A stretch of 34,029 nt of DNA from a virus (IMGVR_UViG_649989947_000025); one strand, 5' to 3'. Positions 10,138-34,029 are shown, counted from the first letter of the stretch. A program made the numbers and translations. The notes: a model not told the origin generated them from the sequence alone.

Positions 10138-10704
10138 TCAGGGGGATTCATTGCTCTTATTTGCCGGAAATTTTCTATAAATGGTAGAAACGCCTACATC
10201 AAAAATCAGTGCAATACACTGTCTTGATTCTCCGGCCTCGAGTAAACGCCCAATCTGTGCCCACTGTTCGGTGGTCAACTTAGGACGGCGTCCACCTACT
10301 CTGCCTTTGGCACGAGCTGCAGCCAGCCCTGCCATGGTACGTTCAACTATCAGTTCGCGTTCCATTTCAGCCAGGGCCCCCATGACATGAAAAAAGAAAC
10401 GGCCCATTGGGGTGCTGGTATCAATACTGTCAGTCAGGCTTCGGAAATTCACGCCACGCTGACGCAACTCTTCTATCAGCGTAACAAGATGCCGCATACT
10501 GCGCCCCAACCTGTCCAGCTTCCAGACAACCAGAGTGTCTCCTGCCGATAGTGTCCTGAGCAGTTTTTTAAGCCCCGGTCTGTCGGACTTAGTGCCACTG
10601 ATTTTATCCTCAAAAATCCGCTCACATCCCGCGCAGTTCAGTGCATTACGTTGCAAATCGGTGTTCTGGTCATTTGTTGACACGCGTACATAGCCAATAA
10701 GCAT
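10138..10704 (-). CDS. serine DNA invertase, Hin/Gin/Pin/Cin family
   Basis: MLIGYVRVSTNDQNTDLQ...LVVWKLDRLGRSM...GRFFFHVMGALAEMERELI, near-identical to Gin/Pin over the catalytic domain; longest ORF extends to 10749. Confidence 0.9.
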   Translation of the reverse strand: MLIGYVRVSTNDQNTDLQRNALNCAGCERIFEDKISGTKSDRPGLKKLLRTLSAGDTLVVWKLDRLGRSMRHLVTLIEELRQRGVNFRSLTDSIDTSTPMGRFFFHVMGALAEMERELIVERTMAGLAAARAKGRVGGRRPKLTTEQWAQIGRLLEAGESRQCIALIFDVGVSTIYRKFPANKSNESP

Positions 10705-10748
10705 GATCAATCCCCTGAATAAAAACCGTGGATGATGCCAGTTAGCCA

Positions 10749-11147
10749 TTATCTCTGCATTTTCATAAACGTACGTTTAGCATAACGTATCTGTGGCCCC
10801 TTACGGCTGACGCGATCACGCAAGCCGTAATGGTGAACACGGGCAATGCGCTGTACCTTACCTTCAAACTGCACGCTGGCAGAGTCGGCGCTGGCGGCAG
10901 TTTTCAGGTATTTTGTGGTGCGAAGTTTTGTAAACATCTGCCGTTTGATACGGCCTTTTTTACTGCGTGCTGTTACTCGCCTCGGTTCATAGCTGCTGCC
11001 ATCAGGATTGCGTTGCATCCTGATGTTCTGCTGCTGTGTCCGGCGCAGTTCCTGCGCCAGCTGGCGCATCATGCGGCTTCTTGCGGCTGGCTCCAGATTC
11101 GCCAGCAAGGCACTCAGCCAGTCGTCCACCTTCTGCAGTTCAGCCAC
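10749..11147 (-). CDS. S: tail completion / virion morphogenesis protein gpS
   Basis: 132 aa, follows R as in P2. Confidence 0.7.
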   Translation of the reverse strand: MAELQKVDDWLSALLANLEPAARSRMMRQLAQELRRTQQQNIRMQRNPDGSSYEPRRVTARSKKGRIKRQMFTKLRTTKYLKTAASADSASVQFEGKVQRIARVHHYGLRDRVSRKGPQIRYAKRTFMKMQR

Positions 11148-19466: not shown

Positions 19467-20441
19467 TTAAATCAAGTCTAATGTACTCTGTTTCCCTGGC
19501 CATTTTAGCTCTAACAAATACTCCCGGGACTCATTTATGATCATAATCACATCATCATAATCCCGTTTTGTTTTTAGCGCTCTAGCCATGTTGCTCTTAA
19601 CTAAATCAACTGTTCCCTCACAATTAAGATTAAGCGGATTATTAGGTAGGTGAGGTACAACCGCAAACACTGGTCTTTTCGCCTTATTTGCAAACTCAGC
19701 TTGAGTTATCGTTCCGCTATTTAACGCAGCCTCGATTAAAATTGAACCTGCAGATAATCCAACTTGTATCCGATTTCTTTGTACAAATGATTGTTTCTGG
19801 GCCGGCCGACCCATAGGATACTCAGAAATCCATGCACCACCTTTATCCAGAATCTCTTGAGCAAGTCGACTGTTTTGCTTCGGCTTAGCCTCCTCAAGAC
19901 CATGCGCCAAGACAGCAATGGTTTTTCCTTTTGCCTGTAACGTTGCCTTGTGGGCATTCGCATCAGTGCCTATTGCTAACCCACTTACAACAATATACCC
20001 AGCAGACACTATCTGATTAGTGATCCGCCTCGTTATTTCTTCCCCTGCAGGGGAGGTATCACGGGATCCTACAATTGCGACACCCGGCAATTCTTTGAGT
20101 ATACTTTTATCCCCTTTTATGTAGAGAATTGATGGTGGATTAGGAGTAAAAGCTAAACTAAGAGGATAGAATTCAGACCCATATGGTATTAGCTCCACAC
20201 CATTAACATGGTGGTTCTCCAATTCAGCGTTCGCTATTAGAAAATCAGTCTCAGATATTTTATCTTTTAGAAACCCGTGGCTATTAACCATCTCAGTTAA
20301 GTCGCGTATATCACGAATAACATCAAAATCGATAAGCTCAAAGAATTTTAATACACTTTGATCAGATGCTAGCTTCCCGATTTGAATAGCTAATCCAAGT
20401 GTATTTTTTAATTCTTCTGAGTGCACTTTGCTACTCCTCAT
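19467..20441 (-). CDS. DprA/Smf-like (SLOG Rossmann-fold) protein, ShosA-like partner of the upstream PRTase
   Basis: AIVGSRDTS ... VVSGLAIGTDANAHKATL ... TIAVLAHGLE motifs; 11-nt overlap with the upstream gene; AT-rich. Confidence 0.7.
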   Translation of the reverse strand: MRSSKVHSEELKNTLGLAIQIGKLASDQSVLKFFELIDFDVIRDIRDLTEMVNSHGFLKDKISETDFLIANAELENHHVNGVELIPYGSEFYPLSLAFTPNPPSILYIKGDKSILKELPGVAIVGSRDTSPAGEEITRRITNQIVSAGYIVVSGLAIGTDANAHKATLQAKGKTIAVLAHGLEEAKPKQNSRLAQEILDKGGAWISEYPMGRPAQKQSFVQRNRIQVGLSAGSILIEAALNSGTITQAEFANKAKRPVFAVVPHLPNNPLNLNCEGTVDLVKSNMARALKTKRDYDDVIMIINESREYLLELKWPGKQSTLDLI

Positions 20442-21165: not shown

Positions 21166-21534
21166 ATGCAGTGGTTTTCATGCACATGCATGACATGAGC
21201 AAAAGCCCGCCAGTTCTGGCGGATCTGAGCAAAGACGATCCTCAATCGATCATGCGATTTCATGCAGCATAGTCATGCACTGTCAAGGAAGTGAAAATCC
21301 GTATCTGAATGGCCACTTGAAAAACGGATCATACGGGTTTACAAAGATGAATGTTCGCTGTGAACGGGAAGCGGAAGTTAGCTTTCAGATAACATAATCC
21401 ATATGCACGAGAACCTCTAAAATAGAATGGGACACCTAAGCGGGGTACTTACAACGATTCTTTCCATATTCACAGTTAACACTCTGTTTGGCGTATTTTT
21501 ATTCAAATAGCAAACACCAATAAAAGGAGTTTCC

Positions 21535-21870
21535 ATGAACAATATTCCCCCTATACCACAGTTAGGAATTTATGTCTCAAAAATCGATCCCACCCTACGT
21601 ATCACTGTAACCGATGTTGATATTGTTGATGGTGAGGATGATTCTCCTGATGATGAATTGTTTTATTTAGTCCACTGGATCGAGGGGGAAGATGAAAGTG
21701 ATATGACAGCAATGGGATTTGAGCTAGACCCAGTAGAGTGGCAGGCTTTCGTTGAATCTGAGCAATTAGTGTTTGAGCGTGATCCGTACATGGATTCAAT
21801 CCCCGAAAATTCAAACTTGGCAAAGATTCGGGATTTTCTCATGAAGACTAAACAGAATGATCATTCGTAA
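21535..21870 (+). CDS. hypothetical highly acidic small protein
   Basis: 111 aa, about 26 Asp/Glu vs 7 Lys/Arg; strong SD AAAAGGAG 6 nt before ATG; AT-rich. Confidence 0.6.
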   Translation: MNNIPPIPQLGIYVSKIDPTLRITVTDVDIVDGEDDSPDDELFYLVHWIEGEDESDMTAMGFELDPVEWQAFVESEQLVFERDPYMDSIPENSNLAKIRDFLMKTKQNDHS

Positions 21871-22062
21871 GTGTAAGCATTCATCAGGAAAATGGTTTTG
21901 TAAGTGAATCATCAACTTTTAGAGAGTCTCAGACACTCCCACTTCTGCTTCTGACACAAAGCGGACGATCACTTATCAAAATAACCGCCCACCTTACGCC
22001 TTATTTCACTCATTGCCCAAACTAGCCCCCATCAGAATGAATCCTCCTGGGGGCAACGTTTC

Positions 22063-22296
22063 TTAATGCAGCCAGCTGTCGTCCTCCCACACCTTCTGCA
22101 TAATTTTCATCACTTGTTTTCTTTCTTCATCCAGTTGCAGTCCGGTTAGTTCCACACCGTTAGAGCTACCTTTGCGAATGCGAATTACCGTTTTGGGATA
22201 CAGGGGGCGCAGATTGCGGTAAAGCTCGGATTCAAGGGCGTCCAGGGTAGACTGGCTAATCTTCTGCTCTTTATCGATCATTATTTCAATGCGCAT
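22063..22296 (-). CDS. DinI-family protein
   Basis: MRIEIMIDK...LYRNLRPLYP...VWEDDSWL resembles DinI; start at internal Met (longest ORF to 22368). Confidence 0.75.
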   Translation of the reverse strand: MRIEIMIDKEQKISQSTLDALESELYRNLRPLYPKTVIRIRKGSSNGVELTGLQLDEERKQVMKIMQKVWEDDSWLH

Positions 22297-22306
22297 AAAA
22301 GTCACC

Positions 22307-22495
22307 TCAGCTGATGACATCCATTGAGCGGTTGTATTCGTGGCTTCTGATTTTTGCCATAAGTTCATCAGTCAATTCAGAAACCCACTGCAGAGCCAGC
22401 CCCTTCTCTTCATCACTACACTCACTAGCCGCTACAAGCTTAAGAAAAAAATCAATGCGCTGGAGCTTCAAAGACTCCAAAAAATAGTCCTGCAT
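22307..22495 (-). CDS. SOS-inducible small protein, Tum-like antirepressor candidate
   Basis: 62 aa from MQDY with AGGAGG SD; first gene downstream of the LexA box; arrangement recalls the 186 tum operon. Confidence 0.5.
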   Translation of the reverse strand: MQDYFLESLKLQRIDFFLKLVAASECSDEEKGLALQWVSELTDELMAKIRSHEYNRSMDVIS

Positions 22496-22537
22496 CTTTC
22501 CTCCTATGACACCACACACAATGCTGTATGTATAACC

Positions 22538-22556
22538 ACTGTTTATATTTACAGTA
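22538..22556. promoter_or_regulatory. LexA box (SOS operator)
   Basis: ACTGTTTATATTTACAGTA, i.e. CTGT-N8(AT-rich)-ACAG, 43-61 nt upstream of the Tum-like start. Confidence 0.75.
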
Positions 22557-22649
22557 TATAATAATCTTACTGATGTAAAACGTTTTTTTTACGCTTATCA
22601 GCCTGATATGCCTGGTATTATTAAGAGCACGAATTGTTAACCAGCGTAA

Positions 22650-22883
22650 TTAATACAGGTTCCGCCACTTATCATCTTCCTGCAAACGCTGGTTCCGATA
22701 GAAGATACGCAGGCCAGCTCCTGACGGAATACTGCCGCCGCGAAGGAGTAAATCGACCTCTTTCTCGCTGCCATCAAATCCTCTGGATTTCAGTTCATAG
22801 ACGAGCTGCTGTCGTTGATGGTCTGTAATTCGCTGTTTGTAGTCTCTACGCCGTTTCGGTTTCACCAGACGTAACCTTGCAGC
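22650..22883 (-). pseudogene. A: displaced 3' fragment of replication gene A (about 76 codons) separated by the IS insertion
   Basis: reading frame is continuous with the A ORF once the IS and one target-duplication copy are removed. Confidence 0.65.
22879..22883. repeat. 5-bp target site duplication GCAGC (left copy)
   Basis: identical 5-mer directly abuts both IS ends. Confidence 0.75.
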
Positions 22884-27019
<4,136 letters not shown>

Positions 27020-29797: not shown

Positions 29798-30373
29798 GTG
29801 ACCATGAATTTGGAGAAAGGCGGACGAGGCGCTATAGAGCGCATGGTAGAAGCATATGGCTTCAAGACTCGACAGGCGTTGTGCGATCACTTAGGAATCT
29901 CTAAAAGTACTCTCGCCACACGCTATATGCGTGACTCATTCCCTGCTGAATGGGTAATCCAGTGCGCACTTGAAACGGGCGCCTCGCTTAACTGGCTCAC
30001 GACCGGACATGGTTCAAAGCAAACTTCAGGTAATACAAATACTATGGAAGTCGTTAAATATGTATTATCTGATGGAACCTTGCAGGAAGATGGTTTTTAT
30101 ATTTTCGATAAAGAATTTCTACCATCTACGCTCAAAAATCCGTTTGTAATCACCGATAACAATTCCGTTTTTATTTGCGATAAAGAGTTTAACGATATTC
30201 GTGACGGCAAATGGGTAATAAGTATTGATGCCGAAGTAACAATCCGCGATATCACTCGTTTACCTGGTGGAAGAATCTTAGTTGAAGGTGGAAATAGGGC
30301 TTTCGAATGTAAAAAAGAAGAAATCGAAATTATTGGAAAAATTATAAGCATAACAGTTAAGTACTTTGAGTAA
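29798..30373 (+). CDS. cI: CI-type immunity repressor (186 CI-like)
   Basis: 191 aa, N-terminal CI-type HTH (KTRQALCDHLGISKSTLATRYMRD) plus C-terminal oligomerisation domain; position next to the switch. Confidence 0.8.
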   Translation: MTMNLEKGGRGAIERMVEAYGFKTRQALCDHLGISKSTLATRYMRDSFPAEWVIQCALETGASLNWLTTGHGSKQTSGNTNTMEVVKYVLSDGTLQEDGFYIFDKEFLPSTLKNPFVITDNNSVFICDKEFNDIRDGKWVISIDAEVTIRDITRLPGGRILVEGGNRAFECKKEEIEIIGKIISITVKYFE

Positions 30374-30423: not shown

Positions 30424-31347
30424 ATGTCAACTCAAAAATTAAAATTTAGCCATATCAAAAACGATCTGAAAGCAATAGTTATGCAGAATCGTGGAGGGCA
30501 AAAAGTTATTGAGCGTATACTCCTAGCCTATGGCTTCAAGTCACGACAGGCATTATGTAATCATCTAGGTATTTCCCAAAGTACTATGGCCAACAGATAT
30601 GCACGTAATACCTTTCCTGCAGATTGGGTTGTTATATGTTCCATAGAAACAGGAGCATCAATTGAATGGTTAGTTCTTGGTTCAGATACTGCTCCTTCAT
30701 CAGAGCAATATTCTGAAAAACATGCCGTTAATGGCCTTTGCAATGAAGTATACATTCCCACTATAAAGTTCGATAATGAAAAACTCATGAATTTTAACCG
30801 AGGGGGTAAGGCAACAATAGAACGAATTGTCGAGGCTTACGGTTACAAAACGCGCCAAGCATTAGCTGATCACCTAGGTATTTCAAAAAGCACATTAGCC
30901 ACACGATACATGCGTGACATTTTTCCTGCAGACTGGGTTTTGCAGTGTGCAATAGAAACGGGCCATTCTATTGAATGGATTTCATTTGGTACAGGAGAAA
31001 TGAAAAACGCAAAAAATAAAGATACTTTAACATTAGTGAAAAAAGTATTAATCAATGGCAAGTTAATAAATGATGGCTCATATTTATTTGACCCATGCTT
31101 TCTACCTTCCAATTTAAAAAATGCATTCGTAGTATCTACCGAAGACTCTGAATTAATATGTGAAATGGGTTTTAAAGATGTACATGATGGTAAGTGGCTA
31201 GTAAATATTGATGGAGAGAATTCATTTAGAATGATAACTCGACTACCTAAAGGACGAGTTTATATTTCATCCCAAAATCACTCTTTTGAATGTTCGCTTA
31301 CAGACATTGAGTTTATTGCAAAAGTTATTATAAGTTGTTTACATTAA
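30424..31347 (+). CDS. CI-repressor paralog with two tandem CI-type HTH domains
   Basis: residues ~24-88 and ~127-190 each repeat the CI HTH; C-terminal ~110 aa align with the C-terminal domain of the upstream CI. Confidence 0.75.
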   Translation: MSTQKLKFSHIKNDLKAIVMQNRGGQKVIERILLAYGFKSRQALCNHLGISQSTMANRYARNTFPADWVVICSIETGASIEWLVLGSDTAPSSEQYSEKHAVNGLCNEVYIPTIKFDNEKLMNFNRGGKATIERIVEAYGYKTRQALADHLGISKSTLATRYMRDIFPADWVLQCAIETGHSIEWISFGTGEMKNAKNKDTLTLVKKVLINGKLINDGSYLFDPCFLPSNLKNAFVVSTEDSELICEMGFKDVHDGKWLVNIDGENSFRMITRLPKGRVYISSQNHSFECSLTDIEFIAKVIISCLH

Positions 31348-31372
31348 GTAAATTTTTCATGGAGACTTCATA

Positions 31373-32890
31373 GTGAAATGTGGTGATTGTAATTGGAACT
31401 GGGATGAAGAAACTACCTTTATATTAGACGACGAAGAGGAAATTCTTTCCAAAGACAAACTTAATCGGAGACACTATGCAGAATATCTATATTTTTATCT
31501 TAAGGAAAAGGGGCAAAAGAACAACACGGTAATCAACCTTAATGCAGAATGGGGAGCTGGTAAAAGTTTTTTCATAAAGAGATTTTATAACTCAATAAAA
31601 GATGCACACCCATGCGTTTACATTGATGCCTGGAAGCAAGACTTTTCTGATGATGCATTTTTAACCCTTTTTTCTTCTTTGTCACAACAATTGCAAACAT
31701 ATGCAGGAAAACTTGATGCTCGATTGATACAAAGCGGCCATGCTATCGGACGCTTTACAAAAGGTGTTCTACCTGAAATCATATCTGGCCTAATCAAGAC
31801 TTATGCAGGAGTAGATAACGTAGGTGATATAGCCAAAGAAGCCTCATTAATAATGCTGAAGGAACACCAGGAAAAACTGAAGAGCATTAAGGTATTAAAA
31901 AAAGAACTAACGTTATGGTCTAGGTTGGCATATGAAAATAGTTTTTCATGTCCTATATTTATCTTTATAGATGAATTAGACAGATGCAGGCCAGATTATG
32001 CAATTTCTCTTTTAGAGATTGTTAAACATATATTCGATATTAAAAATTTTGTCTTTATTATTGCTACTGACACAGATCAATTACAACATTCAATCAAGAA
32101 TGTTTACGGTAATGATTTTTCCGCAAATGACTATTTAGGCCGTTTTTTTCATAGAAGATTTACTTTAAAACAACCTGAACTTAAAGATTTAATTAATGGT
32201 GTTGTTGGTGATTATATTGGTACCGATTTTGAAAATATCACATCAAAAACACACCCACTAACAGCAACATTAGAAGACTTTTCAATAAATATTTCCAACG
32301 TATTTGAAGCATTTGGGTTAAATCTAAGAGACTCAATCCGAAATACTGAAAGGTTAATAGACATTCTTAAATCTGATTTAGTCAAAAAGAAAGTAGATTA
32401 TATTTTTATAATTTCGCTAATGATTATATATGATAAGGAACGTCAAATTATAGATGGACTAATTGGTCGAAGAAATGCAGCACAACGTTTCACTGATTCG
32501 ATAAAGCAAAGCTCCAATTTAAAAGGTGTTTCTCAAGCCATCCTTGAATTAAATCTTGATACAAATCAGCAAAGAATAGGTGTCAATTATATCTATAGAA
32601 CGGCGAGCAGTAGATTATTCATCTCACAGATCGAGCCCAAAATAAATTTAACATTAATAAATTACTTAGATGTTGCATTGTATTTTATTAATAATATAAA
32701 CATGCTTAAATCAAGTATAAAAAACAATGGGCAAAATTCACTAATGATTATATCTCAACAAGGCCCTATTGATGGTGATACAGCTATAAAGTATTTGCAA
32801 GGAGCCCTTATAGAGAATGGTCTGAATACATCTTTTTATGCCTTACATAATTACATTGAATTAATTGAACTGGCCACATCATTTGATTAA
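31373..32890 (+). CDS. KAP-family P-loop NTPase
   Basis: Walker A NAEWGAGKSFF, KAP-type Walker B FIFIDELDRC, 505 aa, GTG start with GGAG SD; very AT-rich. Confidence 0.75.
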   Translation: MKCGDCNWNWDEETTFILDDEEEILSKDKLNRRHYAEYLYFYLKEKGQKNNTVINLNAEWGAGKSFFIKRFYNSIKDAHPCVYIDAWKQDFSDDAFLTLFSSLSQQLQTYAGKLDARLIQSGHAIGRFTKGVLPEIISGLIKTYAGVDNVGDIAKEASLIMLKEHQEKLKSIKVLKKELTLWSRLAYENSFSCPIFIFIDELDRCRPDYAISLLEIVKHIFDIKNFVFIIATDTDQLQHSIKNVYGNDFSANDYLGRFFHRRFTLKQPELKDLINGVVGDYIGTDFENITSKTHPLTATLEDFSINISNVFEAFGLNLRDSIRNTERLIDILKSDLVKKKVDYIFIISLMIIYDKERQIIDGLIGRRNAAQRFTDSIKQSSNLKGVSQAILELNLDTNQQRIGVNYIYRTASSRLFISQIEPKINLTLINYLDVALYFINNINMLKSSIKNNGQNSLMIISQQGPIDGDTAIKYLQGALIENGLNTSFYALHNYIELIELATSFD

Positions 32891-32952
32891 AAGCATTGTT
32901 TGAATAAACTAAACCATACATTGACCACTGGTCAAACATACAGTTAAATTTA

Positions 32953-32976
32953 GCCCTCTGATATGAGGGCTTTATT
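32953..32976 (+). terminator. hairpin plus T-tract ending at the int start codon
   Basis: gccctc-tgatat-gagggc then tttatt, then ATG at 32977. Confidence 0.5.
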
Positions 32977-34029
32977 ATGGCAGTACGAAAACTCACCACA
33001 GGAAAATGGCTTTGCGAATGTTACCCCGCCGGACGTAGTGGGCGTCGTGTGCGTAAACAATTCGCCACCAAAGGCGAAGCACTGGCTTTTGAGCGTCACA
33101 CGATGGAAGAAACCGAAGCAAAGCCCTGGCTGGGTGAATCAGTGGATCGTCGAACACTGAAAGACGTGGTTGAGCTATGGTTCAAACTACATGGTAAATC
33201 TCTGACTGCTGGGCAGCATGTCTATGACAAATTGCTGCTGATGGTTGACGCTCTGGGCAATCCCCTTGCAACTGATCTAACCTCTAAAATGTTTGCCCAC
33301 TATCGAGATAAACGCCTGACAGGTGAGATCTACTTCAGTGAGAAATGGAAGAAAGGAGCAAGCCCGGTCACCATTAACCTGGAGCAAAGCTATCTAAGTA
33401 GTGTTTTTAGCGAACTATCCCGCCTGGGCGAATGGTCGTATCCGAACCCACTGGAGAACATGCGAAAATTCACCATCGCAGAAAAAGAGATGGCATGGCT
33501 TACCCATGAGCAGATTGTTGAATTACTAGCTGATTGCAAACGTCAGGACCCAATTCTGGCACTGGTAGTTAAGATATGCTTAAGCACAGGCGCACGCTGG
33601 CGAGAAGACGTAAATCTTACCCGCTCACAGGTGACCAAATACCGAATTACCTTTGTAAGAGCGAAGGGGAAGAAAAACAGAAGCATCCCTATCAGTAAAG
33701 AGCTTTACGAAGAGATCATGGCGCTTGATGGGTTCAATTTCTTCACAGACTGCTATTTTCAATTTTTATCCGTGATGGAAAAAACGTCTATCGTGCTCCC
33801 TCGCGGTCAACTCACACACGTTCTGCGCCATACGTTTGCGGCGCACTTCATGATGTCGGGTGGAAACATTCTGGCTTTACAAAAAATTCTCGGACACCAC
33901 GATATAAAAATGACTATGCGTTACGCACATCTGGCACCGGATCATCTGGAAACGGCGCTCCGTTTCAATCCTCTGGCAACGCTGCCAAGTGGCGACAAAG
34001 TGGCGGCAGCGGTTGGCATTACCCCGTAA
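32977..34029 (+). CDS. int: tyrosine integrase (P2/186 Int family)
   Basis: 350 aa with RHTFA and HHDIKMTMRYAHL motifs (catalytic R..H..R..Y); stop codon is the last 3 nt of the window. Confidence 0.9.
   Translation: MAVRKLTTGKWLCECYPAGRSGRRVRKQFATKGEALAFERHTMEETEAKPWLGESVDRRTLKDVVELWFKLHGKSLTAGQHVYDKLLLMVDALGNPLATDLTSKMFAHYRDKRLTGEIYFSEKWKKGASPVTINLEQSYLSSVFSELSRLGEWSYPNPLENMRKFTIAEKEMAWLTHEQIVELLADCKRQDPILALVVKICLSTGARWREDVNLTRSQVTKYRITFVRAKGKKNRSIPISKELYEEIMALDGFNFFTDCYFQFLSVMEKTSIVLPRGQLTHVLRHTFAAHFMMSGGNILALQKILGHHDIKMTMRYAHLAPDHLETALRFNPLATLPSGDKVAAAVGITP

Follow-up and report, generated by a model that had tools for sequence, protein, structure and literature searches.

A split tum operon as the probable module for SOS induction in a P2-like prophage of the Fels-2/DuoHS type from Escherichia coli

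The viral sequence IMGVR_UViG_649989947_000025 (34,029 nucleotides; the whole stretch of DNA that was analysed, called the window below) contains two short minus-strand genes preceded by a LexA-like palindrome, which raises the question of whether this locus links the awakening of the prophage to DNA damage, by which proteins, and with what outcome. The initial annotation had proposed an SOS-inducible antirepressor operon arranged as in phage 186, coupling prophage derepression, and possibly the expression of cargo genes, to DNA damage. Our analysis indicates that the region is, with little room for doubt, the module for SOS induction in a P2-like prophage of the Fels-2/DuoHS type, in the split version of the 186 tum gene. 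As such the module is already known: it corresponds to the split tum described before and there is nothing new in it.

Phage context and position of the operon

Comparison by blastn with the prophage of E. coli O127:H6 E2348/69 gives 99.9–100% identity, except for the insertion of an IS element and for the part of the window left of position 10760. The window is a Fels-2/DuoHS-type P2-like (P2/186-like) prophage from an E2348/69-like strain of E. coli, lying between rcdA and ybjL, with RybB at the end opposite to rcdA. An Rfam scan of the whole window returned RybB as its sole match, with none inside the operon region; the location of this small RNA at the left boundary next to ybjL implies that the prophage occupies the rcdA-rybB-ybjL interval, as does DuoHS of E. 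coli HS. The features that define the surroundings of the operon are the following.

2700–2778: RybB small RNA (Rfam RF00110, 105 bits), at the left prophage boundary, adjoining ybjL
19467–20441, minus strand: ShosA, DprA-like, 324 aa, of the Shosta anti-phage system
20431–21006, minus strand: ShosT, phosphoribosyltransferase-like, 191 aa, of the Shosta anti-phage system
21535–21870, plus strand: convergent 111-aa gene with no assigned function, between the dinI hairpin and Shosta
22025–22054, minus strand: GC-rich hairpin GCCCCCA...TGGGGGC with a poor T-run, 3' of the dinI stop codon, from the minimum-energy fold; possible weak terminator
22884–24837, minus strand: IS21-family (IS100kyp-type) insertion sequence, 1954 bp long, interrupting replication gene A; target duplication of 5 bp, GCAGC

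The two-gene operon (tumA and tumB, the latter being the DinI-family gene, also called dinI here) is situated directly 3' of replication gene A, before the cos/portal end. Gene A reaches its C-terminus at 22650, after which come the promoter and then tumA; gene A is likewise the neighbour in 29 of 32 related loci. The operon region (end of gene A, STM2728 and the DinI-family STM2726.1) shares about 96% nucleotide identity with Fels-2 and is near-identical to DuoHS, and the homology to both phages breaks off exactly at the dinI stop codon. P2-like phages have variable cargo in this place after gene A and before the cos/portal end, and in the window the cargo placed between the cos/portal end and dinI is the Shosta system.

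The homology border at the dinI stop places the GC-rich hairpin in the variable cargo region. Folding of the 91-nt region after dinI is unexceptional (z = −0.94), and a terminator scan of 21400–23000 did not call the hairpin, its sole call being a spurious one inside a coding region. The suggestion that cargo expression might be coupled to the SOS operon did not hold up: homology ends at the dinI stop, the hairpin and a convergent gene follow, and Shosta lies more than 1 kb away, so that co-transcription of Shosta with the operon was rejected as unsupported.

The IS element was delimited from the gap and the 5-bp overlap in the blastn comparison with the E2348/69 reference, from which it is absent, and its junctions were read directly. 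It carries istA and istB, whose products have Pfam matches; the name IS100kyp is that given by RefSeq. The junction between gene A and the IS was found in none of 5426 complete E. coli genomes, which argues that the insertion is recent. Since gene A is split, the copy in the window is probably replication-defective, with its SOS module intact, and the pathway may end in this strain without a productive outcome.

Elsewhere in the window, a serine DNA invertase gene (203 aa, Resolvase and HTH_7 domains) abuts a shortened virion-morphogenesis gene S (10138–11147). For the part of the window left of 10760, no counterpart was found in the stretch of the E2348/69 reference that was compared; in that place the reference contains baseplate and tail-fibre genes in the opposite orientation, beside an S gene annotated as incomplete. 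The unmatched left end, the invertase next to a short S gene and the opposite orientation of the baseplate and tail-fibre genes in E2348/69 together suggest that the tail region is rearranged.

The tum promoter and its predicted LexA operator

The intergenic segment between gene A and tumA contains a candidate promoter, equivalent to p95 of phage 186, together with two LexA boxes.

22574–22579, minus strand: −35 hexamer TTTACA of the tum promoter, with five of six positions matching TTGACA, 17 nt 5' of TACTGT
22551–22556, minus strand: TACTGT, left arm of LexA box 1, doubling as the likely −10; the overlap is annotated alike for 186 p95
22537–22556, minus strand: LexA box 1, 20-mer TACTGTAAATATAAACAGTG, with the top matrix score of the window
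22539–22554, minus strand: 16-mer core of LexA box 1, CTGTAAATATAAACAG, of the form CTGT-N8-ACAG
22522–22541, minus strand: LexA box 2, CAGTGGTTATACATACAGCA, weaker (15.3 bits, third in the window)

The distance from box 1 to the ATG of tumA at 22495 is 41 nt when counted from the 20-mer and 43 nt from the 16-mer core, in agreement with the roughly 45 nt of the initial annotation, whose coordinates for the region (22063–22556) were also correct. The bare pattern CTGT-N8-ACAG is not significant taken alone, with two matches in the window for 0.57 expected and two reached in 12 of 100 shuffles; the other match lies inside the transposase gene of the IS. Scoring with a weight matrix had been proposed at the outset. 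With a matrix derived from some 27 SOS boxes of E. coli (training range 12.7–27.0 bits, median 20.0), box 1 obtains 23.7 bits, the best score of the window and above all 200 shuffles, the highest of which reached 19.2.

Conservation across loci is a stronger argument than the matrix score that the box exceeds chance. The layout of a −35 element, 17–18 nt and TACTGT-N8-ACAGT recurs in all 11 phage loci compared (the window, DuoHS, Fels-2, SopEPhi, SEN8, a Yersinia phage, a Klebsiella phage, two ESSI-2-type phages, 186 and PSP3), with diverged spacers and with flanks that have diverged beyond recognition. A single-protein locus search yielded 32 species-representative genomes, covering at least 14 Enterobacterales genera, and nearly all of them have the layout as well. 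Of these 32 genomes, 31 carry a LexA box that scores 15 bits or more and lies no further than 130 nt from the start codon, in 24 distinct sequences where the spacer is variable and the CTGT and ACAG arms are nearly always kept. These observations lead us to predict that a LexA operator overlaps the tum promoter. A simple promoter scan of 21400–23000 called no promoter, TACTGT being a poor match to the −10 consensus.

Box 2 is offset by +15 from box 1, so that the two 16-nt cores share one base. All seven Fels-2-type phage loci have it with this offset, as do 20 of the 32 species genomes, and it was not found in the 186, PSP3 and ESSI-2-type loci, which have a single box each. The double site of Fels-2 matches, at about 90% identity over 42 nt, the double SOS operator in front of a colicin-like bacteriocin gene carried by ColRNAI plasmids, and the operator in the window is a putative double LexA site of the colicin type. 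Double SOS sites of this kind provide tight repression and delayed firing of a lethal gene.

One further LexA-type box lies outside the operon, just upstream of the integrase gene.

32926–32945: separate LexA-type box CACTGGTCAAACATACAGTT (18.8 bits, second in the window)

This box occupies the spacer of a promoter-like site (TTGACC, 18 nt, TAAATT), within a block at 32921–32977. A terminator-like hairpin comes next (32952–32971), whose 3' arm holds the ribosome site of int and whose T-run ends at the int ATG, 32977. DuoHS retains the box (23.4 bits), as do three other E. coli strains, one of them in the canonical form CTGT-N8-ACAG, and it was not found in Fels-2 or 186; homology among about 1100 E. 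coli genomes starts right at this block. Judging from the sequence, a second LexA-controlled promoter may drive the integrase gene. Its transcript would start inside the 5' arm of the hairpin and would therefore escape termination, which would make the integrase SOS-specific. We found no paper on a LexA-controlled int promoter of this kind.

TumA, TumB and the presumed target repressor of TumA

The operon proper is composed of two reading frames, each with its own ribosome site.

22500–22505, minus strand: Shine-Dalgarno sequence AGGAGG of tumA
22307–22495, minus strand: tumA, start ATG 22495, 62-aa antirepressor assigned from PHROG 698 and hhalign, predicted helical hairpin
22063–22296, minus strand: tumB, likely start ATG 22296, 77-aa DinI-family protein (Pfam PF06183)

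A mechanical ORF list gives longer products, 70 aa for tumA (from a GTG 24 nt further upstream) and 101 aa for tumB; the ribosome sites and the homologues favour the shorter starts of both. The genes are separated by a stop codon and a gap of 10 nt, and the ribosome site of tumB, GAGG, overlaps the stop codon of tumA, which makes translational coupling between them likely.

The relationship of the 62-aa protein to Tum of phage 186 is only seen at the profile level. Pairwise BLASTP against 186 Tum produced no alignment, and the direct alignment by which the initial annotation would have checked its proposal thus came back empty. In PHROG, however, TumA matches families 698 (E = 6e-38), phrog_8554 (1e-8) and phrog_1993 (2e-3), and residues 1–69 of 186 Tum match, reciprocally, 1993 (2e-23), 8554 (3e-12) and phrog_698 (6e-6). 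Comparison by hhalign of a 28-member alignment of the TumA family with a 16-member alignment of 186-type N-termini gives a probability of 96.4% and E = 1e-9 over residues 1–43 of both. TumA thus appears homologous to the N-terminal, non-DinI part of 186 Tum, a relationship that extends over only about 43 residues. When TumA was searched as a single sequence against 1.84 billion representatives, 67 relatives were recovered, all short stand-alone proteins, with no DinI fusion among them that would join the TumA and Tum families directly.

TumA is identical, by accession and translation, to WP_001154431.1, which is ECHS_RS04495, the "tum" of the DuoHS prophage of E. coli HS, and also the E2348/69 gene at the coordinates of the window. 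In DuoHS, an in-frame deletion of this gene abolishes induction by mitomycin C (PMC12055606), while the host SOS reporter still responds (PMC12055606). A non-cleavable repressor, lexA(Ind-), also abolishes induction by mitomycin C (PMC12055606); as this allele stops the entire SOS response, the result is no proof of direct LexA control at the tum promoter.

Structure and family searches add little to the picture. The AlphaFold model of TumA consists of two helices (pLDDT 88), for which Foldseek against the PDB retrieved only generic helical hairpins, none at E ≤ 0.001, and a sequence search of the PDB gave no match. Scans with Pfam, NCBIfam and PADLOC returned no meaningful match, Pfam and NCBIfam having no model for it. 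Some database records label the protein "levan regulatory protein". The gene evolves under strong purifying selection, with dN/dS of 0.05–0.09 for relatives at dS of about 1. The tumA promoter and gene are present in 1101 of 5426 complete E. coli genomes, about one fifth, and wherever an annotation was listed among these roughly 1100 carriers, tumA is called "hypothetical protein".

The assignment of the second gene, DinI-like as first annotated, is straightforward. TumB gives a full-length match to PF06183 (1–63 of 63) with E = 6.6e-23 and 81.3 bits for a cut-off of 24.2, is 41% identical to residues 71–145 of 186 Tum (E = 3e-24) and matches the solved structure of E. coli DinI, 1GHH (E = 2.7e-6). 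Against the NCBIfam equivalog for chromosomal DinI it scores 42.7, below the cut-off of 111, and is therefore a phage paralogue and not dinI itself. The acidic stretch VWEDDSW at its C-terminal end is also conserved in 186 Tum and in E. coli DinI, the protein is identical to those of DuoHS and Fels-2, and tumA and tumB taken together show dN/dS between 0.05 and 0.11, again strong purifying selection. By analogy with its family, TumB would bind RecA filaments and modulate the cleavage of LexA and UmuD. The ESSI-2-type phages and 13 of the 32 species loci lack dinI and have the LexA box and the small gene, which makes the small gene the conserved core and dinI dispensable to the architecture. 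In the prophages Gifsy-1 and Gifsy-3, removing dinI by a non-polar deletion made no significant difference (PMC3121763).

The presumed target of TumA is encoded on the other strand.

29804–30373, plus strand: cI, 186-type immunity repressor (Pfam Phage_CI_repr, PF07022, and Phage_CI_C, PF16452)

Over 175 aa, this CI shares 31% identity with the repressor of 186 (E = 2e-38); it is 91% identical to that of DuoHS, from which it differs by one residue in the N-terminal domain. In six phages compared, TumA is 97–100% identical and the N-terminal DNA-binding domains of the paired CI proteins are 68–98% identical, whereas in five of the six CI is only 39–54% identical overall, and 25–42% in the C-terminal domain. 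That TumA is far more conserved than CI, and CI mostly at its N-terminus, hints at recognition of the DNA-binding domain and at action across immunity types. TumA might accordingly be a broad-range antirepressor acting in trans on the conserved N-terminal DNA-binding domain of many 186-type CI proteins, an idea that we put forward tentatively and with more doubt than confidence, as mosaic recombination could equally produce this pattern of conservation. If it were true, a defective prophage could trigger co-resident or incoming P2-like phages upon DNA damage, with a timing set by the colicin-like double LexA operator.

Two extra genes lie between cI and int (30424–32890, plus strand). The first encodes a protein of 307 aa with two CI-type helix-turn-helix domains and a CI C-terminal domain, the second a KAP P-loop NTPase of 505 aa that matches PDC-S20, a candidate defence family (E = 5e-78). 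It is pure speculation that the CI look-alike and the NTPase might be a sensor-effector pair, perhaps one that senses an antirepressor.

Taking these elements together, the following mechanism can be proposed for the module. In the lysogen, LexA would occupy the double operator, with box 1 over the −10 and box 2 over the start region, and hold the promoter silent, as suggested by the sequence, its conservation and the mapped p95 promoter of 186. Upon DNA damage, activated RecA would promote self-cleavage of LexA and the promoter would fire, a step whose phenotype has been shown in the near-identical DuoHS prophage. The two cistrons would then be translated, probably in a coupled manner. TumA would bind the 186-type CI and block its binding to DNA by reversible sequestration and not by cleavage, thereby derepressing the early lytic promoter; the mechanism is that shown for 186 Tum (PMC7708051), and the genetic requirement that shown for the identical DuoHS protein (PMC12055606). 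TumB would presumably bind RecA filaments and tune the SOS signal. In the copy carried by the window, derepression would be unlikely to give productive phage growth, gene A being split by the IS.

Three other explanations of the locus have to be considered. The operon could be a functionless relic of a defective prophage, its genes inducing nothing and persisting only by recent descent, in favour of which speak the 1954-bp IS with its target duplication in gene A, the part left of 10760 that is unmatched to the E2348/69 stretch and the serine invertase abutting a shortened S gene. We consider this unlikely, while taking it as the most serious of the three. Neither the promoter nor the two boxes nor the two reading frames are damaged, and the encoded proteins do not differ from those of DuoHS, which is inducible; as CI, Apl/CII and integrase are likewise intact, derepression, excision or killing could still follow SOS induction; and the IS junction, found in 0 of the 5426 complete genomes, points to a recent event. 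Moreover, this explanation bears on the outcome in the strain and not on the identity of the module.

The small protein could also be some other SOS-induced factor, such as a toxin, a division inhibitor or a partner of DinI, with DinI as the main product. Neither a curated family nor BLASTP similarity to Tum speaks against such a role, and the "levan regulatory protein" label of some records and the generic helical hairpin fold would fit it as well. It is nevertheless highly improbable, given that in-frame deletion of the identical gene abolishes induction of DuoHS while the host SOS reporter responds, that the profile homology to the Tum N-terminus is significant, and that the box and the small gene are kept in the loci without dinI (ESSI-2-type phages and 13 of 32 species). 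Least credible of all, in our view, is that the LexA-like sequence is a chance palindrome in AT-rich intergenic DNA, with the genes controlled in another way, for example by read-through from gene A. The bare pattern does occur twice in the window, as in 12% of shuffles, and no clear terminator separates gene A from the promoter; against this stand the matrix score above all 200 shuffles, the fixed distance between box and −35 in loci with completely diverged flanks, the box in 31 of 32 species genomes and the block that lexA(Ind-) imposes on induction of the sister prophage.

We therefore retain the reading as a LexA-controlled operon of a Tum-type antirepressor that would couple derepression to DNA damage, as the initial annotation had it, on the grounds of position, promoter, profile homology, a 186-type CI and the genetics of DuoHS. 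Such a module would set the time at which a prophage family very common in E. coli, Klebsiella and Salmonella wakes. It opens no new biological question, and its value is one of annotation: naming tumA correctly would help to predict which P2-like prophages are SOS-inducible.

Comparison with known systems

In phage 186, the promoter p95 is repressed by LexA, and Tum sequesters CI reversibly (PMC7708051). According to the 186 record, Tum (146 aa) is a composite that joins an N-terminal part to a C-terminal one resembling DinI, and the latter is also produced alone, from a GTG start inside tum; Lemire et al. (2011) noted that Tum looks like an antirepressor fused to DinI (PMC3121763). The p95-tum-orf97 region of 186 resembles the operon of the window in lying immediately 3' of gene A and in having a −10, TACTGT, that doubles as left arm of the LexA box. 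The N-terminal part of Tum is related to TumA at the profile level and its C-terminal part is 41% identical to TumB, and in both cases the target, a presumed one for the window, is a 186-type CI lacking a cleavage domain. The differences are that 186 has one fused tum where the window has two cistrons, a single LexA box where the window has two overlapping ones, and orf97 downstream where the window has the unrelated Shosta cargo. The antirepressor and the DinI-like part, which 186 joins in one polypeptide, are not fused in the window. The likeness to 186 first proposed is thus retained for the LexA-boxed promoter, whereas the arrangement of the genes is that of the split form of PSP3 and Fels-2.

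Lemire et al. describe the tum region of Fels-2 and PSP3 as interrupted by a stop codon (PMC3121763), and in PSP3 it is the upstream gene that carries the antirepressor activity (PMC3121763). The PSP3 record annotates the two genes as tumA and tumB; a literature search on tumA/tumB found nothing relevant. The two-gene arrangement of the window is shared with tumA/tumB of PSP3 and with STM2728/STM2726.1 of Fels-2. Fels-2 is not materially different from the window, the nucleotide identity of about 96% extending over promoter and genes, with TumA two residues apart and DinI identical. PSP3 differs in that its TumA falls in the 186-type sequence family, not in that of Fels-2, and in its single LexA box.

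DuoHS is very close, with identical TumA and DinI, a near-identical promoter, a CI that is 91% identical and the same insertion site next to rcdA. It is unlike the window in having an intact gene A and other cargo, both 3' of dinI and between cI and int.

[quoted passage not shown] There, however, dinI comes first, the prophages are lambdoid and the repressors belong to another family. As to the operator, the 35-nt arrangement TACTGT-N8-ACAGTGG-N8-ACAGTA in its Fels-2 version has a counterpart of about 90% identity on ColRNAI plasmids, where it precedes a colicin-like tRNase bacteriocin gene as a double operator of the colicin type. In the bacteriocin promoter, both boxes are situated downstream of the −10, TAATTT, whereas in the window box 1 overlaps the −10.
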